Shown here piece after piece: positions 47,555 to 58,918 of a stretch of 64,000 nucleotides of DNA. The notes under the pieces were generated by a model. It ran no database searches. It saw nothing but the letters and a program-made list of their open reading frames with translations, and was not told where the DNA came from. A program made the translations under genes and the position numbers. The stretch is from the NCBI GenBank assembly GCA_963841435.1, contig CAWJCS010000002.1, positions 768,001 through 832,000 of the forward strand, written 5' to 3'. Position 1 is the first letter of the stretch; the number at the start of each line of letters is the position of its first letter. Origin of the DNA: an uncultured delta proteobacterium (GTDB lineage: Bacteria; Myxococcota_A; Polyangia; Polyangiales; Polyangiaceae).

Positions 47555-49096
47555 TTGAGCGACACCGAGATCCACGACGGCGGGGCGTTCGCTCGACGGG
47601 CGGGGCGGAGCAGCGTGGCAAGCGCGTTCTTCGCCCAGGCGCGGCAGAAGCCCGCGGCGCTGGCCCTCGAAGAGGGAGATCGTCGGCTGAGCTACGGTGC
47701 GCTCGGTGCTCGCGTCCTCGCGCTCGCCGGCGCGCTTCACGCTCGGGGAGTCGGCCGCGGCGATCGCGTCGCCGTCCTCAGTGAGAATCGCGCAGAGTAT
47801 CTGGAGGTTTTCCTTGCGGCAGCGAGCGTCGGCGCGCTCGTCGCCTGCCAGAGCTGGCGGCTCGCCGCGCCCGAGCTCGCGCATTGCGTCGGCCTCGTGT
47901 CGCCGAAGCTCGCGTTCGTTTCGCCGCGGCACCGGGCGGCGATGGATGGCGTCGCGGGCGCGCCACCGCGCGTCGTTTTCGGCGACGACTACGAGGCGCT
48001 GCTCTCGAGCGCAACGCCGCTCGCCGCGCCCGAGGAGCTCGACCCGGAGGACGCCTTCCTCGTTCTTTACACGAGCGGAACCACGGGCCTACCGAAGGGC
48101 GCCGTCATCAGCCATCGCGCGGAGCTCGCACGAAACCTCGTGGTGCTCGCCGAGTTCGGCGTGCGCCCGGACGACACGTTCGTCGCGTGGTCGCCTCTCT
48201 ACCACATGGGTGGTGCGGACTACTCGCTCGGCACGCTCATGTCCGGCGGCAAGGTCATGCTCGTCGACGGCTTCGATCGCGCGCGCCTCGCGGAGATCGT
48301 CGCGAGCGAGACGTTAGGCTGGCTCATCCTCATGCCCGGCATGGTCTCGACGTTTGCGGTCGAGCTCGAGGCGCGTCGTGTCGAGCCACGCGGCGTGCGC
48401 CTATGCGGCGTGATGGCCGACCTCGTCCCGCCCGCTGAGATCGCGCGCATCACGCGTCTGCTTCGCGCGCCCTACGCGAACACCTTCGGCGCCACCGAGA
48501 CCGGCTGCCCGCCGTGCTCGTCGAATCTCATCCCCGTCGGGATCGTGCCCGAAAGGCTCTCGAAGGAGCCGAGTCGCTTCTGCGAGATCCGCCTGGTCGA
48601 CGCCGACGACAGGGACGTTCCGGACGGCGCGCCCGGCGAGCTCTGCCTCCGGGGGCCCACGCTGTTCAGCGGCTACTTTCGGGCGCCCGAAGTCAACGCG
48701 CACGAGTTTCGCGGCGGCTACTTCCACATGGGCGACGTGTTCGTACGAAACTCGGACCGCACGCTCGACTTCGTCGACCGCGTGAAATACCTCATCAAGT
48801 CGGGCGGCGAGAATATCTACCCCGCCGAGATCGAGCGCGTGCTGTTGCGCGACCCGCGCGTCGCGGAGGCAGCCGTGGTGCGCGCCCGCGACCCGAAGTG
48901 GGGCGAGGTGCCGGTCGCCTACCTCGCCGTCAACGACGAAAGCCTCGGCGAGGACGAGCTCAAGCAGCTGTGCCGGGCCGCGCTCGCGGGGTACAAACAG
49001 CCGAAGGCCTTCCGTTTCATCGCGCTCGAGGATTTCCCTCGCAGCGCATCCGGGAAAATCCAGCGCCACGAGCTGGAGAAGCGAGAGCGACGATGA
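47555..49096 (+). CDS. AMP-forming acyl/aryl-CoA ligase
   Basis: YTSGTTGLPKG, PLYHMGG, FGATET, FHMGD, DRVKYLIKSGGENIYPAEIE, SGKIQ. Confidence 0.9.
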   Translation: MSDTEIHDGGAFARRAGRSSVASAFFAQARQKPAALALEEGDRRLSYGALGARVLALAGALHARGVGRGDRVAVLSENRAEYLEVFLAAASVGALVACQSWRLAAPELAHCVGLVSPKLAFVSPRHRAAMDGVAGAPPRVVFGDDYEALLSSATPLAAPEELDPEDAFLVLYTSGTTGLPKGAVISHRAELARNLVVLAEFGVRPDDTFVAWSPLYHMGGADYSLGTLMSGGKVMLVDGFDRARLAEIVASETLGWLILMPGMVSTFAVELEARRVEPRGVRLCGVMADLVPPAEIARITRLLRAPYANTFGATETGCPPCSSNLIPVGIVPERLSKEPSRFCEIRLVDADDRDVPDGAPGELCLRGPTLFSGYFRAPEVNAHEFRGGYFHMGDVFVRNSDRTLDFVDRVKYLIKSGGENIYPAEIERVLLRDPRVAEAAVVRARDPKWGEVPVAYLAVNDESLGEDELKQLCRAALAGYKQPKAFRFIALEDFPRSASGKIQRHELEKRERR

Positions 49097-49869
49097 GCGA
49101 CCTTCCCGAGCACCAGACGACGAGCATTGCCACCTCCACCGTCGACGACGTGTGGATCCGCGACAAGAGCCTGTGCCGCGAGCTCATCGGCAAGCTGAGC
49201 TTCACCGAGGTCCTGTATTTCCAGATCCTGGGGAAAATGCCCAGTCCCGGCGAGCGAGACGTCGTGGACGCCTGCCTCGTCACGCTCATGGAGCACGGTC
49301 TCACGCCGAGCGCGCTCACGACGCGGCTCGTGTACTCGAGCGCCGAGGAGGCGCTGCAGGCCGCCGTCGCGGCAGGATTGCTCTGTGTCGGCAGCCGCTT
49401 CGTGGGGACGACGGAGGGGGCAGGGGAGCTCATCGAGCGCATCGTCTCAGCGGGCGACGCGGGCGCGGCGGAGGCCGAGCGTATCGCTCTGGAGTTTCGC
49501 GCCGCCAAGCGCCCGCTGCCGGGCTTCGGTCACCCGTTCCACAAGCCCGACGATCCGCGGACGCCACGCCTGCTCGAGCTCGCTCGCGAGCGAGGCGTCG
49601 CAGGCGCGCACGTGCGCGCCATCGAGCTCTTGGCGGACGCCGTGGATCGCACGTGCGGCCGGCACATCACGCTCAACGCGACCGGTGCCGTCGCCGCCGT
49701 GCTGGGCGACTGTGGCGTTCCGCGTCGCGTGCTGCGCGGCTTCGCGGTCATCGCACGGGCGGCGGGGCTCGTCGGCCACGTCCACGAAGAGCAGGAACGA
49801 CCCGCCATGCGCGCCATCTGGGAGGCGGCCGAACGCAAGGTCGCCTACGACGGAAAAGCAGGCCGTTGA
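49093..49869 (+). CDS. Citryl-CoA lyase-like (citrate synthase family) protein
   Basis: ATGA overlap; LMEHGLTPSA, PGFGHP.HKPDDPR, LNATGA, RAAGLVGHVHEEQ. Confidence 0.85.
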   Translation: MSDLPEHQTTSIATSTVDDVWIRDKSLCRELIGKLSFTEVLYFQILGKMPSPGERDVVDACLVTLMEHGLTPSALTTRLVYSSAEEALQAAVAAGLLCVGSRFVGTTEGAGELIERIVSAGDAGAAEAERIALEFRAAKRPLPGFGHPFHKPDDPRTPRLLELARERGVAGAHVRAIELLADAVDRTCGRHITLNATGAVAAVLGDCGVPRRVLRGFAVIARAAGLVGHVHEEQERPAMRAIWEAAERKVAYDGKAGR

Positions 49870-49931
49870 CCGCGGTCGCGCCGTGACGCGACATGCTAGA
49901 GTCCTGCCCCTTTCCAAGAGGAGAACGGTCC

Positions 49932-50606
49932 ATGAAGCTCTACATGCATCCAGTGTCCATGACGAGCCGGCCCGTCCGGCTGTTCATCGCCGAGAACGAA
50001 ATCCCCTGCGAGGAGCAGATCGTCGATCTGATGAAGGGCGAGCACTTGCAGGAGCCCTACGCCGCGATCAATCCGAACAAGCTCGTTCCCGTGCTCGAGG
50101 ACGGCGATCTCCGCCTTACGGAGAGCTCCGCCATCCTCAAGTACCTCGCCGACAAGATCGAGTCGCCCACCTACCCGAAGGACCTGAAGAAGCGGGCGAA
50201 GGTGAACGAGATGATGGATTGGTTCAACACCAACTTCTATCGCGACTACGGCTACGGAATGGCGTACCCGCAGATCTTTCCCCATCACAAGCGGCCGACC
50301 GATGACGTGCAGAGCGCGACGATCGCCTGGGGCACCGAGCGCGCCCGCAGCTGGCTCAAGATCCTCGACGAGCACTGGATTGGGCCCAAGCGTGCCTACG
50401 TGACGGGCGACTCCATCACGATCGCCGACTACTTCGGCTCGTGCCTCGTGACGCTCGGCGAGGTGTTGCGCGTCGATTTCGAGCCATTTCCCAACGTGCA
50501 GCGTTGGCTCGGCAACATGAAGAAGCTCAGGAGCTGGCCGAAGGTGAACGAGGCGCTCTATGGTCTCCAGGGCGCGCTGAAGGACCTGCCGTTCGTCACC
50601 GTTTGA
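49932..50606 (+). CDS. Glutathione S-transferase family protein
   Basis: INPNKLVPVLEDGD, TESSAILKYL, SITIAD; ATG 49932. Confidence 0.9.
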   Translation: MKLYMHPVSMTSRPVRLFIAENEIPCEEQIVDLMKGEHLQEPYAAINPNKLVPVLEDGDLRLTESSAILKYLADKIESPTYPKDLKKRAKVNEMMDWFNTNFYRDYGYGMAYPQIFPHHKRPTDDVQSATIAWGTERARSWLKILDEHWIGPKRAYVTGDSITIADYFGSCLVTLGEVLRVDFEPFPNVQRWLGNMKKLRSWPKVNEALYGLQGALKDLPFVTV

Positions 50607-50614
50607 TCCCCGCG

Positions 50615-51103
50615 ATGCTCAAGGGCCTGCACCACAACGCCTACCGCTGCCGCGATTCGGAGGAGACCCGCAAGTTCTACGAGGACTTCTTGGGTCTCCC
50701 CCTCGCGGCGACGTTGGAGCTCAAGGAAACGAAGACCGGCCGGCCCACGGAGACGCTGCACACCTTCTACCGCCTGGACAACGGGTCGTTCCTCGCGTTC
50801 TTCGAGGCGCCGGACATGCCCTTCGAGTTCAAGGTGCAGCACGACTACGATCTGCACATCGCGGTCGAGGTCGAGTACGGAGATCTCGCGCCGATGCTGG
50901 CCAAGGGGAACGCCGCCGGGATCGCGACGCGCGGCATCTCGGACCACGGCTTCATCCACTCGATCTATTTTCAGGATCCCAACGGGTACATCATCGAGCT
51001 CACGGCCAAGCTCCCGCACCACGACGAGTCGGTCGATCCAACGAAAAATGGGGCGCGGAGCAAGCTTGACGCCTGGCAGCAGCGCAAGCCGCAGCCGCAC
51101 TGA
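50615..51103 (+). CDS. VOC (glyoxalase/bleomycin resistance/dioxygenase) family protein
   Basis: LHHNAYRCRD...FYEDFLGL, LHIA, SIYFQDPNGYIIEL. Confidence 0.85.
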   Translation: MLKGLHHNAYRCRDSEETRKFYEDFLGLPLAATLELKETKTGRPTETLHTFYRLDNGSFLAFFEAPDMPFEFKVQHDYDLHIAVEVEYGDLAPMLAKGNAAGIATRGISDHGFIHSIYFQDPNGYIIELTAKLPHHDESVDPTKNGARSKLDAWQQRKPQPH

Positions 51104-51125
51104 GCTCGGTGGTTCGTCGAGGTCC

Positions 51126-52140
51126 GTGAAGGGGCTCGTCGCGTGGTTCGTCGTGCTCGGCGCACTCCTCGTGCCGCTTCCCGCGAGCGCCGAGGACGCC
51201 GTGCCGTTGCCGAGCATGCCGGGCGAGCAGCCCGAGCCAGCGCTTCCGACGACGCCGGATGATGCGGCACCCCCGGCGCCGCCCGCTGCCGAGCCGGAGC
51301 CGCCCCCGACCGAGCCGCCCGCTGCCGAGCCGCCCGCTGCCGAACCGGAGCCGCCCCCGGTGCCGCCCGCCGCGTCCTTTCCCGAGACATCAGCGGTCGA
51401 GCCACCGCCTGCCGCGCCGCCGCCCGCGAGCGCCGCGCCGCCCGCACAGCACCTGCTCGGTCCCGCACCGGAGTCGCCGGCGCCCGAGCGTCGCTGGACC
51501 TCCGCACCGCCCGAGAAGAACAAGGACGACGAGGGCGGGATTTTCGGCCCGTTTCGCATCGGGCCCTTCGTGAGCTTCGGGACGCCGAGCCTGGTCGGCG
51601 TGGGCGCGATGATCAAGCTCACGCGCTACGTCGCCGCGGGCGCGCACGTCGGTCTGATTCCGACCCTTCGCTTCAAGTACTACGGCGAAGCGACCGTCTC
51701 GTACCAGGACTACACGCTTTTCGGCCGGTTGCATCTGCTCGGCGGCGGCTTCTTCCTCGGCGCAGAGGTGGGCTACGCGCACATGCGGGGGACCTACGAC
51801 GAAACGATCAACGTCTCCGAAGTACACGGGCTCCGTGCCGGGCCTGCCGACGAGCGTCGATTACTCGAGCACCGGTACGGTGAAGACCTTGGTTTTGACG
51901 CCCGAGATCGGCTACTTCAAGACCTTCGGCTCGGGCTTCAGCATCGGCGTGGACTTCGGCGTTCAGGTTCCCATTGCGCCGAGCGAGGTGAGCTTCCAGC
52001 GCAAGGTGAGCTCGGGCTTGCCGGACACGCTCGTCGATCAGCTCCTTGCGCCCGAAGACGAGAAAGTGAAGAGCACCCTCGAAAAGCTCGGGCGCACCGT
52101 GCTCCCCGCGCTCCACGTGCGCATGGGCTTTTTGCTCTAG
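51126..52140 (+). CDS. Hypothetical outer-membrane beta-barrel-like protein with Pro-rich N-terminus (frameshift near 51820)
   Basis: Signal peptide, PPAAEP repeats, alternating beta-strand pattern, ends VRMGFLL*. Confidence 0.6.
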
Positions 52141-52168
52141 GAGCGGCGGCATTCGCCGGAAAAGACGT

Positions 52169-55111
52169 TCAGGTCGGCGCGAAACGCGGGCGGTGCACGC
52201 CCCAGACGCCGCCGAAATCCGCCACGCGCTCGGGTGCGCTCTTCGCCCAGCGGCTGAGCGAAAGTGGCAACGTCGTTTCGAACTGGAACCACAGCGCCTG
52301 GTCCGAGTAGCGGTGCGGGCGATCCGCGACCTTGGGTGACTGCGCGAGGATCCGGCGCGTGAGCGCGGCGCCGGGTCCGTGCGGCGTCATGCCGGGCGTG
52401 ATGAACAGCGCGCCCGGTGCGAAGAACGTTTCGCGCGTCGTGATGTCGCGCACGATGCCGTTGATCTCGGTCGTGCCGTTGCGATGAAAATACGGCGGGC
52501 GGAACGTGCCCTCGGTCGCGTCCCAGCGCGGGGCGAAGACCACGAGGTCGAGGCTCGCCGTGCCCGGCTCGTCGAGCGGCGCGCTCAGCACGGTGTGGAC
52601 GGACGGATCCACGTGATCGACTCGCGCGTTGCCGACGGGCGAGAAGAGCGAAAGATCGTAGACGACGGGCGTGTAGTTGCCGTGCCAGGCGACGACGTCG
52701 AAGGGTGAATGGTCCTGGCGCGCTTCGTAGAGCTTGCCGCCGAGCTTGTGCGTGAGCCGGAAGCCCGGGCTCAGGCGGTTCTCGAACCAGGCGGCAGGCC
52801 CGCGAAAATGGCGCGGATCGGCCAGGCCGTTGGCGCCTATCAGGCCGCGCTCCGGCAGCCCGAAGTGGCGGCCGTAGACCTCGGCGAGGTAGCCGCGCGC
52901 CGTCGCGTCGCGAAGTAGCACGCTGAACCGGATGCCGCGCGGCACGAGGGCGAGCTCACCGGGCCGAACCTCGAGTGCTCCAAGCTCCGTCAGCAACGTG
53001 AGCCGGCCCTGCTGCGGCAAGAGCAAGAGGTCACCGTCGGCGTTGCAGACGGCGCGCTCCTCCATGCTGCGGTTGGCGGCGTAGACGTGCACGGCAAAGC
53101 CACGCCGCGCGGCGGCGGAGCCGGAGCCCCCGATGGTGCGCACGCCGGCGACGAAATCCGTGGGTGTGACGGGCGGGGCGAGCGGCGCGAAGCCCGTGAG
53201 GTTCGCTTCGAGCGGCTCGGCGCAAAAGTCGTCGGAGAACAGCGCGCCGTCGAGTGGCACGAACGGTGAGGCGTTGGTGCTCGGCCGTACCCGGTACATC
53301 CAGACGCGCGCGTTCTCGGCACGCCGAGCCGTGAAGCCGGTGCCGTTCAGCTGCTCGGGGTAAAGGCCGTAGGGCGCGTGACGTGGCGTGTTCTGGGCCG
53401 CGGGCAGGGCGCCGGGGAGCGCCTCGCTCGCATGGTGGTTGCCGAAACCGAGCGGCGCCGGCGGCGGCGCTCGCCCGGCGAGCGCGGCGTGCGCGAGCAG
53501 GCGGTGCTCGGCGTGGAGGGTGTGCGCTTCGCCCGCCGCCATGGCGAGCGTCACGTCGAGCCCGGCTGTCGCGAGGTGCTTGGCGGTGCGCTCAACGTCA
53601 CCCTCGCCGAGCCAGGGATCGCCGCGGCTCGCTCCGACGAGCACCGGCATGCCGCGGAGCGCGCTCGGGGGCGCGAGCTCTTCGCCCGGTGCGCCGATGT
53701 TTGCGCCCGAGAGCGCGACGACGCCTGCGAGCCGCTCGCTCCGCCTCGACGAGAGCTCGAGCGCGAGACACGCGCCCTGTGAGAACCCGTACAAGGCGAC
53801 GTGCTCCGCGCCCGCCTCGGAAACGGCGTGATCGAGCACCTTGCCGGTTGCGGCGAGAGCGCCCTCGAGCTCGGCGAGCTCCCGTTTCGGCGCGCTGTAG
53901 CGCCCGGTGTACCAGGCGTTGTCCGTCGCCTGGGGTGCGAGGATCGCGAGCTCGGGATCGTCACCCGTGAGCTCGAGCACGCGAGCGACGGCGCCGTCCG
54001 CCGTCGCGCCACGCCCGTGCAGCGCCACGATCACGCGTCGCGCCGTCGCCGGCGCGGGGCCGTGCACGGCGACCGGTTCGGAGAGGCCGAAATCCTCGTG
54101 GCGCGTCGCACGTGAGGGGCGGCGGCCGTGGTACGCGCTCCGGAGCAGCGCACGCGGTAGCTCCGCGTGGGACAGAAGGATCGCGTCGAGCTTCGCGAGC
54201 GTCACGCCGAGCGCCTTGAGCGAGGTGGGTGCGCCCGCGCGTACCAGGGCATCGAACAGCCCTGCTTCCAGGTCACCCACGGCGAGGCGCGCTTCGACCT
54301 CTCGTACGACGGGTGCGTGGGTCGCACGGGCGGCGTGCACGGTGTGCGGGAGCAACGCGGCGTGCAGCGCGCCATGCTCGAGATCGAGCATGCCTCCGAG
54401 CCGGTGAACGAGCTCGTGGTGCGCCCCCACTTTCGCGCCCTCGAGCAGCCGGGCCGCCTGAGCCGCGCCGCGCAGCGCCGCGGCGCGCGCGCCAGGGTCC
54501 ACGGGTGAGCGCAGGATGCCGTCGATCGCGCCGTAGACGCGCTCGATCGCCGCGAGCGCCTGCTCGGAGCGCTGTTCGCCGTCGGCCGTCGTGAGGAGCG
54601 TGCCGAGCGGATGGGCCAGCGCGTTGAGCAGGCTCGTGACGCTGAGTGCCTTGGGCATGTCGAGCGTGAGCTCCACGTCGTGGATGACGAGGCGCGGGCG
54701 CACGCGGTCGTCCCGGCCCGTGACCTTCTTGCCGTTTTCGAGGCGGCCGTGGATGTTGGTGTGCTCGGAGCCCGAATACGTGGTGGGAATCGCCACGAGG
54801 GTGATCGCGTGCTCGAGCCCGAGCACCTTGGCGAGGCCGATGGCGGAGCCGCCACCGAGCGCGATCACCGTGTCGGCGCCGCTTGCCGCGAGCGCCTGCG
54901 TTGCTTCGGCGACAACGTCCTCGGGTACGTGGCGGCGAGCGCCCGAGTAGACGCCCACGGCTCGCTCGCCGAGCAGCGGCTTTACCCGGTCGAGGTAGCG
55001 CTCACTCGGCCCCGTCACGACGAGCACACGGCGACTGCCGAGCGCGTCGAGCGCTGCCGGCAGCGCGGCGAGCTCGTCCGCCTCGAGTGGTGGGCCCGGA
55101 ACCGCGCTCAC
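52169..55111 (-). CDS. Three-domain fusion: maleylacetate reductase-like Fe-ADH + alpha/beta-hydrolase (carboxylesterase) + homogentisate 1,2-dioxygenase-like domain
   Basis: GGGSAIGLAK, IPTTYSGSE, NALAH, HHELVHRLGG; LHGRG, GFSQGA, GDPW, EAH; GFGN..SEALPGALP, PYGLYPEQL, FDVVAWHGNY, DHVDPS, FRPPYFHRN..E, MTPHGP. Confidence 0.85.
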   Translation of the reverse strand: MSAVPGPPLEADELAALPAALDALGSRRVLVVTGPSERYLDRVKPLLGERAVGVYSGARRHVPEDVVAEATQALAASGADTVIALGGGSAIGLAKVLGLEHAITLVAIPTTYSGSEHTNIHGRLENGKKVTGRDDRVRPRLVIHDVELTLDMPKALSVTSLLNALAHPLGTLLTTADGEQRSEQALAAIERVYGAIDGILRSPVDPGARAAALRGAAQAARLLEGAKVGAHHELVHRLGGMLDLEHGALHAALLPHTVHAARATHAPVVREVEARLAVGDLEAGLFDALVRAGAPTSLKALGVTLAKLDAILLSHAELPRALLRSAYHGRRPSRATRHEDFGLSEPVAVHGPAPATARRVIVALHGRGATADGAVARVLELTGDDPELAILAPQATDNAWYTGRYSAPKRELAELEGALAATGKVLDHAVSEAGAEHVALYGFSQGACLALELSSRRSERLAGVVALSGANIGAPGEELAPPSALRGMPVLVGASRGDPWLGEGDVERTAKHLATAGLDVTLAMAAGEAHTLHAEHRLLAHAALAGRAPPPAPLGFGNHHASEALPGALPAAQNTPRHAPYGLYPEQLNGTGFTARRAENARVWMYRVRPSTNASPFVPLDGALFSDDFCAEPLEANLTGFAPLAPPVTPTDFVAGVRTIGGSGSAAARRGFAVHVYAANRSMEERAVCNADGDLLLLPQQGRLTLLTELGALEVRPGELALVPRGIRFSVLLRDATARGYLAEVYGRHFGLPERGLIGANGLADPRHFRGPAAWFENRLSPGFRLTHKLGGKLYEARQDHSPFDVVAWHGNYTPVVYDLSLFSPVGNARVDHVDPSVHTVLSAPLDEPGTASLDLVVFAPRWDATEGTFRPPYFHRNGTTEINGIVRDITTRETFFAPGALFITPGMTPHGPGAALTRRILAQSPKVADRPHRYSDQALWFQFETTLPLSLSRWAKSAPERVADFGGVWGVHRPRFAPT

Positions 55112-55938
55112 GGGCTCTCCAAGTGGAGGAGCGCGCGCGCCTCGCTCGGGGTTGCGATGCTGCGGCCGTGCTCGCGGGCGAGCGTGGCGACGCGGGCGAC
55201 GAGCTCCGCGTTGCTCGCGGCGAGTCGATGCTCGTCGAATCGCACGTTGTCCTCGAGCCCGGTGCGAACGTGCCCACCGAGCTCGAGCGACCAGCGGTTC
55301 ACCGTGAGCTGGTGCTTGCCCATCCCGGCGGCCGTCCAGCTGGCGCCCGGCATCACGCTGGCGAGCTCGCGCACGAGAAACTCGAAAAGCTCACGTCGGG
55401 CCGGCAGCGCGTTCTTCAGGCCGAGCACGAACTGCACGTGCGCCGGCGCGCGGACGAGCTGCCGCTCGACGAGCGCGGCCGCGTTGTAGAGCATGGCGAC
55501 GTCGAACACCTCGATCTCGGGCTTGATCCCGCGCGCCAGCATCTCGCTTGCGAGCCCCTCGATGAATTCGGGGGGATTCTCGTACACGGAGGTGGGAAAG
55601 TTCACGGAGCCCGTCGCGAGCGAGGCCATGTCGGGTCCGAGATGAAGCATCGAGCCACGCTCCGCGAGCGAGCGCCCACGGCCACCCGTCGAAAATTGGA
55701 CGATCATGCCCGGGCAGTGCTCCTTCACGCCCTCCATCACGCGCGCGAAGCGCGAGGGGTCCGAGGACGGGTGACCCTCGTCGTCGCGGACGTGCACGTG
55801 CACGAGTGCGGCGCCGGCCTCGTAGGCGGCCTGGGTCGACTCGATCTGTTCGCTCGGACTGATCGGGACGTTCGGATTGTTCGCCTTCTGCGGAAGGGAG
55901 CCGGTGATGGCGACGCTGATGATGCAGGGCTCGGCCAC
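55108..55938 (-). CDS. Beta-keto acid cleavage enzyme (BKACE / Kce / DUF849)
   Basis: IISVAITGS, NVPISPSEQ, VHVHVRD, QFSTGG, MASLATGSVNF, KPEIEVFD, HVRTGLEDN; GTGA overlap with the fusion gene. Confidence 0.9.
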   Translation of the reverse strand: MAEPCIISVAITGSLPQKANNPNVPISPSEQIESTQAAYEAGAALVHVHVRDDEGHPSSDPSRFARVMEGVKEHCPGMIVQFSTGGRGRSLAERGSMLHLGPDMASLATGSVNFPTSVYENPPEFIEGLASEMLARGIKPEIEVFDVAMLYNAAALVERQLVRAPAHVQFVLGLKNALPARRELFEFLVRELASVMPGASWTAAGMGKHQLTVNRWSLELGGHVRTGLEDNVRFDEHRLAASNAELVARVATLAREHGRSIATPSEARALLHLESP

Positions 55939-55964
55939 GCCCCCGCATCATCCCCCAAACCGCC

Positions 55965-57296
55965 TCAGGGCGCTGCCCCGAGCTCGCTCAGGGACCTCAA
56001 AAAATAAGCACTGTCCTTGGGTCGCCGCACCTGGGTCGCGAAGTCCACGTGAAAAAGCCCGTAGCGCAGCGTGTACCCCTCCGACCATTCGAAGTTGTCG
56101 AGCAGCGACCAGGCAAAGTAGCTCTCGACGGGCACGCCCTCGCGCCGAGCGATGGCGATCTCCGCCAGGTGCGCTGCGAGGAACTCGGTGCGCCCGCGAT
56201 CGTGGATTTTGCCGTCGGCCTCGAGCGCGTCGTCGAAGGCGGCGCCGTTCTCCGTGACCACGAGGCGCGAGAATCCGTAGTCACGATGGAGGCGAGTCAG
56301 CGTCTCGCGAATTCCCGGCGCGTAGATCTCACGGTCCGCCGTGCGCGGCAGGCCGGTGTCGCGGACCCGGCGCTCGGAGAGCACGCCGCCCGCCGGGTCG
56401 TGGGCGACGACGGCGCGCTCGTAGTAGTTGACGCCGAGCACGTCGATGGGCTCGGCCATCCGCTCGAGGTCACCGGGCGCCATGGCCGGCATGCGCGAGC
56501 CGTAGAGCTCGCACATGTCCGCCGGGTAGCCGCGGCCGACCAGCGGCTCGACGAACCAGCGATTGAAGTTGCCGTCGACGCGCCGGGCCGCCGCGCGGTC
56601 CTCGGGTGAATCGCTCGCGGGGTGGGCCGGCAGATAGTTCACGGCGATTCCGACGGGCGCGCGCGTGCGCGTCCGGAGCGCTCGCACGGCCTCGCCGTGC
56701 GAGATGAGCAGATGGTGGGCGCAGAGCAGCGCCTCGCCGAGATCGTGGTGACCGGGCGCGAACAGGCCAGTGTGGTAGCCGAGGAATGCCTGGCACCACG
56801 GTTCGTTGTGCGTGAGGTAAAGCGCGACACGGTCACCGAGCCGCGCGCCGACCGCGTCCGCGAACTCCGCGAAGGCCCCCACCGTGTCGCGCGAAAGCCA
56901 GCCGCCGGGGAGGGCGTCCGGCAGGTCCCAGTGGTAGAGCGTGGCGTTCGGGCGGATGCCGCGCTCCAGCAAACGATCGACGAGGCGATCGTAGAAATCG
57001 AGCCCCCGCTGGTTGACTTGGCCACGTCCGAGCGGGACCACGCGGGGCCAGGCGATGCTGAACCGGTAGGCGTTCACGCCGAGCCACCCGAGCAGGGCGA
57101 GGTCCGCTTCGAATCGATGGTAGTGGTCGCAGGCGATGTCCGCGTGGTGGCCGAGCTTGGTCTTCCCGAGCGTGTGCGAGAACCTGTCCCAGATGCTCGG
57201 GCCCCGGCCGTCCTCGTTCACGGCGCCCTCGATCTGGTAGGAGGACGTGGCGACGCCGAGCTGGAAGTCTTGGCCGAGATCCGCGCGCGCGAGCAT
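55965..57296 (-). CDS. GH1 beta-glucosidase
   Basis: GVATSSYQIEGA, CDHYHRF, YRFSIAWPR, TLYHWDLP, acid/base HNEP, nucleophile VTENG, WSLLDNFEWSEGY. Confidence 0.95.
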   Translation of the reverse strand: MLARADLGQDFQLGVATSSYQIEGAVNEDGRGPSIWDRFSHTLGKTKLGHHADIACDHYHRFEADLALLGWLGVNAYRFSIAWPRVVPLGRGQVNQRGLDFYDRLVDRLLERGIRPNATLYHWDLPDALPGGWLSRDTVGAFAEFADAVGARLGDRVALYLTHNEPWCQAFLGYHTGLFAPGHHDLGEALLCAHHLLISHGEAVRALRTRTRAPVGIAVNYLPAHPASDSPEDRAAARRVDGNFNRWFVEPLVGRGYPADMCELYGSRMPAMAPGDLERMAEPIDVLGVNYYERAVVAHDPAGGVLSERRVRDTGLPRTADREIYAPGIRETLTRLHRDYGFSRLVVTENGAAFDDALEADGKIHDRGRTEFLAAHLAEIAIARREGVPVESYFAWSLLDNFEWSEGYTLRYGLFHVDFATQVRRPKDSAYFLRSLSELGAAP

Positions 57297-57493
57297 TCGC
57301 CCCCTTTTGAGTCGATTCCTTCACGCAAATCAAGTTGTCCCGCCCTGAGACGCGCCTTGCCGCGCGGGCCCGCGCTCCGGCGTCATCCCGCCCGAGCGGC
57401 TACCGACTCCCGACTCGCTGTCGCGTTCGACGCGATCGCGGCGCTCGACGCGAGAAGGCGTGCCGAGCACACGATAAAGATCCATAGTAGTTT

Positions 57494-58918
57494 ATGGCGG
57501 CTTATCGGCCGAACAACCTGATCGCGATTTCCGACCTGCACCTTGGGGCGGACCTCGTGCATCACGTGCGGCCCGACGCCCCGGCGCGCTCCCTCTCGAG
57601 CGAGCGCAGCGACCGAGAGCTCGTCGAGCTGCTCGCCTGGTACCGCGACCACCGCGTGGACGACAAGCCGTGGCGATTGGTGATCGGCGGCGACTTCATC
57701 GACTTCGCGGGCATGGCCATGACGGCTCGTGGTGCAGAGCTATCGACGCCGCCCACGGAGGAGGAGCTCTATCACGGCCTCGGCAGCTCCATGGATCACG
57801 CGCTCGTCAAGCTCCAACTCGTGCTCGTGCATCACGCAGGAGTGATGGAGGCGCTCGCTCGTTTCGTCGCAGCGGGCAACACCCTCGTCATCGTGCGGGG
57901 CAACCACGACGTGGACTGGCACTGGCGCCCGGTGCAGCGCGCTTTCAGGCGCGCACTCGAAGCGTACGCGCCCCTGCCACGCGGTGCCGTCGCCTTCGAG
58001 CCGTGGTTTTACTACGAGGAGGGTCTCGTCTACGTCGAGCACGGGCATCAGTACGATCCGTGCTGCAGCTACGACAACGTGCTCTACCCCATTTCCCCCA
58101 CGGACCCGCTGCGTACGGCAAGGTCGCTCGCGGACGTGCTCTTGCGCTACGTCGTGCGTCCCACGCGCGGCATGCGAGAAAGTGGTCACGAAGCCGCGAG
58201 CCTCCTCGACTATCTGAGATTCGCCGTTCGGCTCGGGGCGCGCGGTGCCGTCGCGCTCGTGGGGCGCTTCGCGGCCGCGAACCGCGCGCTGCTAGCCCTC
58301 TGGCGCGGGCACCTGCGAGGCGCCTCGGATCGGGTCAAGGCCGTCCATCGCCGGCGCATGCGCGCGCTGAGCACCTTCTATCGCATTCGGCTCGAACGCC
58401 TCGAGAGCCTCGCGAAGCTGCAGTACGCCCCGGTGACGCGCAGCCTCGCCGGCATCCTCACGAGCGTCATGCTCGATCGCGTGCTGCTGGTCGCCGTCGC
58501 CCTGCTCGGAACGGCGGTGTTGCTCCTGTTCACGCCACGCTGGGTGGCGGTGCCCGGGGTGGCGCTGCTCGTCGCGGTGCTGCTCGCCGGATTCCGTCAC
58601 GTCTTTCCCGTCCGCAGCGTGGAGCCGAGCGCACTCTTGCGCGAGCGCTCGATGCTCGTGGCAAAGCTCTTTCCCGCAGCCTTTGTCGTCATGGGGCACA
58701 CCCACCTGCCCGAGGTTCGCTCGCGAGAGCGCGTGACGTACGTGAACCTCGGTGCCTGGGCCGAGCCCGACTCCGCCGAGGGCGGCGCCGCGCCGCCACC
58801 CGCGGCGCGGACTCATCTCGTCTTGTTGCGTGCAGAAGGTGGCATGACGGCAGAGCTCCGGGCCTGGCGAGCGACGGGCCCCGAAGCGTTCGTCGGCGGC
58901 GAGCCGCGCGCCTGCTGA
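57494..58918 (+). CDS. Calcineurin-like metallophosphoesterase with internal TM hairpin
   Basis: ISDLHLG, GGDFID, RGNHD, EHGHQYD, MGHTH, YVNLGAW. Confidence 0.85.
   Translation: MAAYRPNNLIAISDLHLGADLVHHVRPDAPARSLSSERSDRELVELLAWYRDHRVDDKPWRLVIGGDFIDFAGMAMTARGAELSTPPTEEELYHGLGSSMDHALVKLQLVLVHHAGVMEALARFVAAGNTLVIVRGNHDVDWHWRPVQRAFRRALEAYAPLPRGAVAFEPWFYYEEGLVYVEHGHQYDPCCSYDNVLYPISPTDPLRTARSLADVLLRYVVRPTRGMRESGHEAASLLDYLRFAVRLGARGAVALVGRFAAANRALLALWRGHLRGASDRVKAVHRRRMRALSTFYRIRLERLESLAKLQYAPVTRSLAGILTSVMLDRVLLVAVALLGTAVLLLFTPRWVAVPGVALLVAVLLAGFRHVFPVRSVEPSALLRERSMLVAKLFPAAFVVMGHTHLPEVRSRERVTYVNLGAWAEPDSAEGGAAPPPAARTHLVLLRAEGGMTAELRAWRATGPEAFVGGEPRAC

Follow-up and report, generated by a model that had tools for sequence, protein, structure and literature searches.

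The window examined here is a 64,000-nucleotide stretch of DNA from an uncultured delta proteobacterium of the family Polyangiaceae (GenBank assembly GCA_963841435.1, contig CAWJCS010000002.1, positions 768,001 to 832,000). It encodes on its minus strand a single protein (P0001) in which three enzymes follow one another without interruption: a maleylacetate reductase (MAR)-like member of the iron-containing alcohol dehydrogenases (Fe-ADHs), a carboxylesterase of the Abhydrolase_2 family and a cupin dioxygenase of the homogentisate dioxygenase (HGD) family. Judged by its sequence, the dioxygenase belongs to the HGD family but is not of the HmgA type. By analogy with fungal enzymes we propose, with moderate confidence, that the fusion may act as a single-chain lower pathway that converts an O-substituted hydroquinone, for which methoxyhydroquinone is the most plausible candidate, to 3-oxoadipate. 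The three-enzyme logic of such a route is already known in fungi.

Domains, catalytic residues and spread of the fusion

A preliminary description of this DNA had reported one 980-residue frame with a MAR-like part, a hydrolase with a Ser-Asp-His triad and an HGD cupin, and our Pfam and PDB sequence matches agree with that reading (coordinates are collected in Table 1). The N-terminal part matched the Pfam families Fe-ADH (residues 11-145, E 1.5e-23) and ADH_Fe_C (residues 158-310). Its best PDB sequences were MARs, namely 3HL0 (4.8e-54, residues 18-311), 3JZD (2.4e-53) and 3W5S (2.6e-51), with alignments to MARs spanning approximately residues 17-332, whereas non-MAR Fe-ADHs scored 2.8e-16 or weaker in the same search. 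Over its full length this domain is thus closest to MARs and not to alcohol dehydrogenases, and we propose that it would use NAD(P)H to reduce the C=C bond of a maleylacetate-type substrate. The middle domain matched Abhydrolase_2 (PF02230) at residues 357-532 with 37.6 bits, above the gathering score of 23, and the carboxylesterase 4H0C in the PDB (E 1.5e-22). The C-terminal part carries both HGD Pfam domains, HgmA_N (PF20510, residues 555-820, E 1.1e-99) and HgmA_C (PF04209, residues 822-971, E 7.5e-32), and matched the human and Pseudomonas putida HGD structures at about 1e-100 to 1e-109.

The catalytic motifs quoted in the preliminary description were all found, and their six key residues are invariant in an alignment of 33 homologues. 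These are the Ser-Asp-His triad of the esterase (S444 in GFSQG, D498 in GDPW and H530 in EAH) and the His/Glu/His Fe(II) triad of the dioxygenase (H876 and E882 in PPYFHRNGTTE, H911 in MTPHG). Also invariant in this alignment are the GGGS loop of the reductase (G86-G88) together with H232, H236, H246 and H250, and stretches of both interdomain linkers are almost invariant. The two junctions had been said to be free of stop and start codons, and at 54040-54160 and 53420-53520 we likewise found all three minus-strand frames free of stops, and no in-frame ATG. A soil-metagenome run (X1) contains 6% of the sampled words from this DNA; the contigs from it span short pieces of this DNA, none of them at ~53460 or ~54100, and a search for RNA runs returned none. 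A scan of positions 51000-58000 for promoters and terminators returned no promoter-like and two terminator-like sites, fewer than in shuffled sequence, and was uninformative.

We examined the distribution of the protein by searching 5.8 billion clustered proteins. Among the best 120 of 449 hits, 119 were non-self, and 118 of these are 963-1019 amino acids long and contain the same three domains in colinear order, at 48-69% identity and with coverage of 97-100%; the one exception is a partial sequence of 745 amino acids. Because 118 full-length colinear homologues exist, the fusion is not a product of chance or of assembly, as had been argued earlier from the junctions. A cluster of 116 members with the three-domain architecture, mostly from Myxococcota, is present in the ESM Atlas. 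Within the genus, five of 36 other species genomes (G005, G013, G014, G025 and G036) contain a fusion-type match, two of the five being cut by contig ends. Across the phylum, sampled evenly, 13 of 301 genomes (one of them the window's own) gave a match to a query running from the MAR C-terminus through the esterase. Frames of about 1000 amino acids or more occur in six of the 13, the window's own genome again among them; the remainder appear to be two-domain or stand-alone proteins. The three-domain architecture is therefore a rare and patchy accessory trait. It had been called undescribed, and our literature search found no paper describing a MAR, esterase and HGD architecture. More than 100 such proteins are already in public databases under automatic names, either homogentisate 1,2-dioxygenase or iron-containing alcohol dehydrogenase.

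The dioxygenase domain set against canonical HmgA

On the hmgA equivalog model TIGR01015 the dioxygenase domain scored 442.1 bits, below the cut-off of 510.75. We aligned the HGD domains of 119 fusion proteins (P0001 and its 118 full-length homologues), two two-domain proteins that lack the esterase, and 74 canonical HmgA sequences (L019-L092), the last taken from the best 80 of 597 confirmed related stretches, six of these 80 being fused forms. The Fe ligands are kept throughout (74/74 canonical, 119/119 fusion and 2/2 two-domain proteins). The Tyr of the YDAK motif in the active-site lid, by contrast, occupies its aligned column in all 74 canonical sequences but in one of 119 fusion proteins and neither of the two-domain forms. 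When any Tyr within the lid segment is counted, the figures become 74/74, 4/119 and 2/2, and the lid segment of P0001 contains none. The His of the SLH motif (human His365) is likewise present in every canonical sequence and in no fusion protein, its place being taken by Thr in 114 and Ser in five; one of the two-domain proteins has Thr and the other Ser. Other features of the active site persist, in that the His292 equivalent is kept in 103 of 119 fusion proteins and the PPY pocket is largely kept; identity to canonical bacterial HmgA is 44-49%. A quick maximum-likelihood tree, unrooted and with quick-search supports, was built from P0001, both two-domain proteins, and 34 further fusion proteins and 30 of the 74 canonical sequences drawn at random. 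It split canonical HmgA from all other sequences (SH-aLRT 100), and the three-domain forms fell to the same side of a branch supported at 99.

The residues in question have assigned roles in characterized enzymes. The lid Tyr (Y350 in human HGD, Y346 in P. putida) contacts the homogentisate carboxyl, according to section 7 of a review (PMC11634970). The same source describes two enzymes of Phanerochaete chrysosporium, PcMHQD1 and PcMHQD2, that favour methoxyhydroquinone, and reports that PcMHQD2 has Phe at the lid Tyr site and gives no conversion of homogentisate. A 2026 bioRxiv preprint delimits the lid as Gly347-Gly355 and describes His365 as a second-shell residue, hydrogen-bonded to the Glu ligand, with a role in proton transfer.

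These observations bear directly on the preliminary description, which had proposed that homogentisate is converted to maleylacetoacetate in a bypass of MaiA and FahA. Such a route would have the MAR domain reduce maleylacetoacetate to succinylacetoacetate, after which either the hydrolase would cleave it to succinate and acetoacetate, or the BKACE-family enzyme encoded immediately upstream would yield 3-oxoadipyl-CoA and acetoacetate; MaiA and FahA would thereby be bypassed independently of glutathione. The overall similarity to HmgA, with its retained Fe ligands and largely kept His292 equivalent and PPY pocket, is in its favour, as are the database name homogentisate 1,2-dioxygenase and the inclusion of diketo-acid cleavers in the BKACE family, one model of which (NF053538) is a weaker match of the upstream gene. 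We nevertheless consider it improbable and do not uphold the proposal. The lid Tyr and the His365 equivalent, both universal in canonical HmgA, are lost, the equivalog cut-off was not reached, and the upstream BKACE protein passes the cut-off of a model specific for the 3-oxoadipate enzyme. C-C hydrolysis is not known to be an activity of PF02230 carboxylesterases.

The genome also carries separate genes for the tyrosine route, all on contig C1. A gene for a short HgmA-like cupin of 384 amino acids overlaps the 4-HPPD (hppD) gene by one base and scored just 42 bits on the hmgA model; a true maiA gene lies ~9 kb from hppD, with a gene of the FAA-hydrolase family beside it. The genome would thus appear not to need the fusion gene for tyrosine catabolism, and the short cupin is a candidate homogentisate dioxygenase.

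A further HGD-family protein came to our attention during these comparisons. PDB entry 9PZ4 (chain A, 496 amino acids), deposited as a homogentisate 1,2-dioxygenase, is missing the lid Tyr in our alignment and has Gln in place of His365, so that it too may be a non-homogentisate member of the family; a literature search found no relevant paper for 9PZ4 or 9PH0.

Genomic context and a proposed pathway to 3-oxoadipate

The gene directly upstream of the fusion encodes a BKACE-family protein of the 3-oxoadipate:acetyl-CoA acetyltransferase type, which scored 452.3 bits on NF053568.1 (cut-off 350). Its TGA stop codon overlaps the GTG start of the fusion gene (GTGA), with GGAGAG just upstream. A GH1 beta-glucosidase gene on the same strand precedes the BKACE gene by 26 nt and is probably the first gene of the operon. 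In all four same-genus loci that we fetched, the fusion is immediately preceded by BKACE (73-79% identity), and in G014 the two genes adjoin by their coordinates; GH1 precedes the pair in two of the four loci. Across the genus, BKACE was above cut-off (441-463 bits on NF053568.1) in the same five of 40 genomes that have the fusion and in none of the 35 others; 31 of these 35 were also searched for the fusion, so that 36 genomes were searched for both genes. With the window's own genome, which has both, there are six carriers in total. The carrier genomes are kin, and we therefore count this as one co-inherited module and not as six independent events. The context suggests that 3-oxoadipate is the product of the putative pathway. 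The preliminary description had also offered maleylacetate followed by 3-oxoadipate as an outcome; as to product this comes near to what the co-inherited BKACE gene indicates, but the starting substrate that we propose is a different one.

Chemical reasoning points in the same direction. Cleavage of a 2-substituted hydroquinone beside its substituent would give R-CO-CH2-CO-CH=CH-COOH. Hydrolysis of this compound could release R, and so lead to maleylacetate or 3-oxoadipate, only if R is O-linked or a halide; with an alkyl R, or with the carboxymethyl R of homogentisate, the product would be a ketone instead. The chemistry thus supports the match to a methoxyhydroquinone route. By analogy with the fungal enzymes discussed below, the substrate is most likely a 2-O-substituted hydroquinone, 2-methoxyhydroquinone or a close relative, originating from plant or lignin phenolics. 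The GH1 beta-glucosidase may release the hydroquinone from a glucoside. The C-terminal Fe(II) dioxygenase would open the ring between the hydroxyl-bearing and the substituted carbon, giving maleylacetate in an ester form (4-hydroxy-6-methoxy-6-oxohexa-2,4-dienoate, together with its keto tautomer). The N-terminal MAR-like domain would then use NAD(P)H to saturate the C=C bond, and the central Ser-Asp-His carboxylesterase would remove the alcohol to leave 3-oxoadipate, although reduction and hydrolysis could occur in either order. Within the genus, the translationally coupled BKACE would turn 3-oxoadipate and acetyl-CoA into succinyl-CoA and acetoacetate.

We also used the esterase domain alone in an exhaustive search of 1.84 billion representatives, which returned 1184 proteins at E values up to 0.001, and submitted 27 of the best 150 matches, picked by length, to a Pfam scan. 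Eleven of the 27 are three-domain proteins or fragments thereof. Five others (P0286, P0292, P0326, P0363 and P0381; 560-617 amino acids) are complete MAR-esterase proteins with both domains above the Pfam threshold, and P0266 and P0309 are likely of the same type, their esterase part falling under the threshold set; taken together, the two-domain MAR-esterase proteins are 556-617 amino acids long, and a 54-member cluster of this type is present in the ESM Atlas. In P0298 (547 amino acids) a VOC-fold ring-cleaving dioxygenase is fused to an esterase of the same subfamily (4H0C, E 3.9e-47), and the dioxygenase part matched Bacillus subtilis MhqO (3OAJ, 4.4e-85) and the 2,6-dichlorohydroquinone dioxygenase PcpA (4HUZ, 7e-42). 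The esterase subfamily is thus a recurrent companion of hydroquinone or maleylacetate enzymes, a pattern that we count in favour of the methoxyhydroquinone route together with the firmicute operons described next.

The occurrence of P0298 raises the possibility of a quinone/hydroquinone detoxification system. The phospholipase/carboxylesterase MhqD of Staphylococcus aureus and B. subtilis is described as sharing one methylhydroquinone-induced operon with the dioxygenase MhqE (PMC6798810). The fusion protein might by this model act on alkyl-hydroquinones, with the hydrolase serving as a C-C hydrolase on the resulting diketone and with no contribution to growth. The shared esterase subfamily and the patchy, accessory distribution of the fusion gene (5/36 in the genus; 13/301 in the phylum, six of the 13 with frames from ~1000 amino acids upwards) are both compatible with such a role. 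We judge it very unlikely since, on the chemical reasoning above, alkyl substituents would not give maleylacetate or 3-oxoadipate, the predicted BKACE substrate, and since the presence of a MAR and the exit at CoA level point to carbon assimilation.

A different substrate class is brought up by the genes that converge on the fusion. A plus-strand cluster (47555..51103) encodes an acyl-CoA ligase, a citryl-CoA-lyase-like protein, a glutathione S-transferase (GST) and a small VOC/glyoxalase protein, and the same set of gene types lies convergent to the fusion in locus L107 of G025. Two-domain genes that join MAR directly to a fusion-type HGD domain, without an esterase, occur in L111 (8976-11426, G037, 816 amino acids) and L112 (8639-10984, G046, 781 amino acids); each has a GST gene divergently upstream, and GST, lyase-like and ligase genes adjoin both. 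In L110 (1605-4604, G060) a MAR-esterase gene has genes for a VOC protein and a GST directly upstream on the same strand. The cluster is possibly part of the same pathway as the fusion, which is to say only that the genes are associated. The trio of GST, ring-cleaving dioxygenase and MAR recalls the chlorohydroquinone pathways LinD/E/F and PcpC/A/E.

One may accordingly picture the protein as a fused analogue of LinD/E/F or PcpC/A/E acting on hydroxy- or halo-hydroquinones such as hydroxyquinol or chlorohydroquinones: after ring cleavage to maleylacetate, an acyl halide or a dienelactone, and a step in which the hydrolase would resemble a serine dienelactone hydrolase, the MAR would complete the conversion to 3-oxoadipate. 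The recurrence of GST and VOC genes beside MAR-containing fusions (the window, L107, L110, L111 and L112) fits this picture, as do a weak Pfam DLH match of the hydrolase (E 1e-4), the esterase-less MAR-HGD forms, which would suit a substrate needing no ester hydrolysis, and a 3-oxoadipate product, which would suit the BKACE neighbour. We regard it as unlikely all the same. The nucleophile of the hydrolase is a Ser in a carboxylesterase-type GFSQG motif; classical dienelactone hydrolases have a Cys nucleophile. A dehalogenase role for the window GST is putative; it matched no curated model above cut-off and scored 68 bits on maiA. PcMHQD1 and PcMHQD2, which are characterized non-homogentisate members of the HGD family, are reported to be inactive on trihydroxybenzene (PMC11634970).

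Several points weigh against the methoxyhydroquinone pathway that we prefer. Its substrate is assigned by analogy with fungal enzymes, from sequence and context. Abhydrolase_2 enzymes are generic esterases or thioesterases, and an identity of 44-49% to canonical HmgA leaves room for residual homogentisate activity. PcMHQD1 keeps the lid Tyr yet favours methoxyhydroquinone, so that this residue is informative but not decisive (PMC11634970). The existence of esterase-less MAR-HGD proteins implies that the esterase step is not universal or is supplied in trans. Outside the genus, BKACE was absent from the flanks of all six other fused loci (L013-L018), which otherwise hold genes unrelated to aromatic catabolism, and it was above cut-off elsewhere in only one of the five genomes to which these loci belong.

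If the proposal is true, the protein would be a bacterial counterpart of the recent fungal route of ring cleavage without demethylation for guaiacyl-type lignin fragments, and would identify the enzyme family behind a reductase step that in fungi has a candidate only. It would also constitute a one-gene module (two genes with BKACE) from methoxylated hydroquinone to succinyl-CoA and acetoacetate, attractive for lignin valorization and for studies of substrate channelling. More tentatively, we envisage a self-contained myxobacterial enzyme with three active sites that may convert methoxyhydroquinone, or another alkoxy-hydroquinone derived from lignin or from glycosides of plants, into 3-oxoadipate with no prior O-demethylation, pass the intermediates between its domains, probably as a large oligomer, and use the BKACE as an exit that dispenses with a CoA-transferase/thiolase pair; this fuller picture is possible, though we would not lean on it. 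Should it hold, no HGD-type dioxygenase for alkoxy-hydroquinones would have been known from bacteria before, and a MAR homologue would for the first time be directly assigned to the reductase step. The results also call for a correction of annotation, in that the more than 100 proteins carrying homogentisate dioxygenase or Fe-ADH names are without the homogentisate-recognition residues.

Some features of the surrounding DNA deserve separate mention. We rejected the window GST as a maleylacetoacetate isomerase, its maiA score of 68 bits being far below the cut-off of 171 and the true maiA being on contig C1. Two minus-strand open reading frames downstream of the fusion (50558-51622 and 51808-52152) are spurious: they have no family match and a non-coding codon-position GC pattern, and their apparent conservation in tblastn is the antisense of the plus-strand VOC gene. 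Codon-position GC indicates plus-strand coding in one frame to ~51850 and in another at 51835-52140. A longer plus-strand frame (51048-52310) would run into the 3' end of the fusion gene, a shorter one covers 51835-52140, and neither has a family match; they may represent a frameshifted or mis-assembled small gene. An operon conserved across all fused loci was considered and rejected, as none of the window's neighbours was found in L013-L018. At two of these six metagenome-derived loci a gene for a Pirin with a quercetinase-type C-terminal cupin adjoins the fused gene (L014, 7026-7790, plus strand; L017, 10781-11656, plus strand), and L017 also has a divergent LysR regulator.

Table 1. Coordinates of the fusion gene, its domains and key codons, neighbouring genes and the separate tyrosine-route genes; positions are those of the window unless a contig and locus are named
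Feature	Position	Strand	Remarks
Fusion gene (P0001)	52169..55111	-	980 aa, GTG start, translation without stop
MAR-like Fe-ADH domain, residues 1-335	54107..55111	-	Pfam and PDB sequence matches
Abhydrolase_2 carboxylesterase domain, residues ~340-545	53477..54094	-	PF02230 and 4H0C matches
HGD-family cupin dioxygenase domain, residues 553-980	52169..53455	-	HgmA_N and HgmA_C, PDB HGD matches
Esterase triad codons	S444 53780-53782, D498 53618-53620, H530 53522-53524	-	
Fe-ligand codons	H876 52484-52486, E882 52466-52468, H911 52379-52381	-	
Thr905 codon	52397-52399	-	His at this position in canonical HmgA
BKACE gene, 3-oxoadipate:acetyl-CoA acetyltransferase type	55108..55938	-	PF05853, E 1.2e-95
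GH1 beta-glucosidase gene	55965..57296	-	PF00232; TIGR03356, 548.6 bits (cut-off 478.5)
Acyl-CoA ligase gene	47555-49096	+	convergent to the fusion gene
Citryl-CoA-lyase-like protein gene	within 48514-49869	+	NF004868, 304.9 bits (cut-off 193)
GST gene	49893-50606	+	
Small VOC/glyoxalase protein gene	within 50441-51103	+	
hppD (4-HPPD) and adjacent HgmA-like cupin genes	contig C1, L012 6578-8892	-	4-HPPD, 268.9 bits (cut-off 277)
maiA and FAA-hydrolase-family genes	contig C1, L012 17028-18710	-	maiA, 245.7 bits (cut-off 171)

Comparison with known systems

The closest parallel is the Aspergillus niger route described by Lubbers et al. 2021 (PMC8336404), which involves the same three enzyme types and ends in 3-oxoadipate; the likeness considered here is one of enzyme type. 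MhdA, annotated as a homogentisate 1,2-dioxygenase, is reported there to cleave methoxyhydroquinone to 4-hydroxy-6-methoxy-6-oxohexa-2,4-dienoate, in which the maleylacetate skeleton carries a methyl ester. Reduction of this compound, for which a MAR homologue is the candidate enzyme, leads to 4-oxo-monomethyl adipate, and the carboxylesterase OmeA is proposed to yield 3-oxoadipate (PMC8336404). In A. niger, as described, these are three separate proteins, with the dioxygenase and esterase genes as neighbours, whereas the window encodes one bacterial polypeptide in the order MAR-esterase-dioxygenase, whose substrate we assign by this likeness.

PcMHQD1 and PcMHQD2 of P. chrysosporium resemble the window dioxygenase in belonging to the HGD family and, as regards the substrate that we propose, in their preference for methoxyhydroquinone, and PcMHQD2 shares the absence of the lid Tyr. 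They differ, according to PMC11634970, in being stand-alone fungal enzymes, of which PcMHQD1 keeps the Tyr; in the window protein the whole lid is rebuilt, and the His365 equivalent is Thr in P0001 and Thr or Ser among its relatives.

Canonical HGDs (human 1EY2 and P. putida HmgA 3ZDS) share the fold, the Pfam domains and the iron site with the window dioxygenase (E ~1e-102 to 1e-109). The latter lacks the YDAK lid and the SLH His, falls in a separate clade, is fused, and is unlinked to hppD, maiA and fahA. The reductase domain aligns over nearly its full length with MARs such as those of Agrobacterium tumefaciens (3HL0) and Rhizobium (GraC, 3W5S), and the same enone reduction towards 3-oxoadipate is proposed for it. 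Unlike them it has no free C-terminus but runs into a conserved linker and the esterase, and its substrate may be an ester rather than free maleylacetate. TfdF, LinF and PcpE are further maleylacetate reductases.

The firmicute MhqE/MhqO and MhqD proteins (PMC6798810; PDB 3OAJ) provide another case in which a hydroquinone-type dioxygenase is paired with a PF02230 esterase. There, as the system is described, the dioxygenase has the VOC fold and is not an HGD cupin, the role is one of detoxification and no MAR is part of it. The likeness to the BKACE 3-oxoadipate:acetyl-CoA acetyltransferases (NF053568.1) is of another kind, since it concerns the partner gene, whose linkage to the fusion was seen only within the genus.

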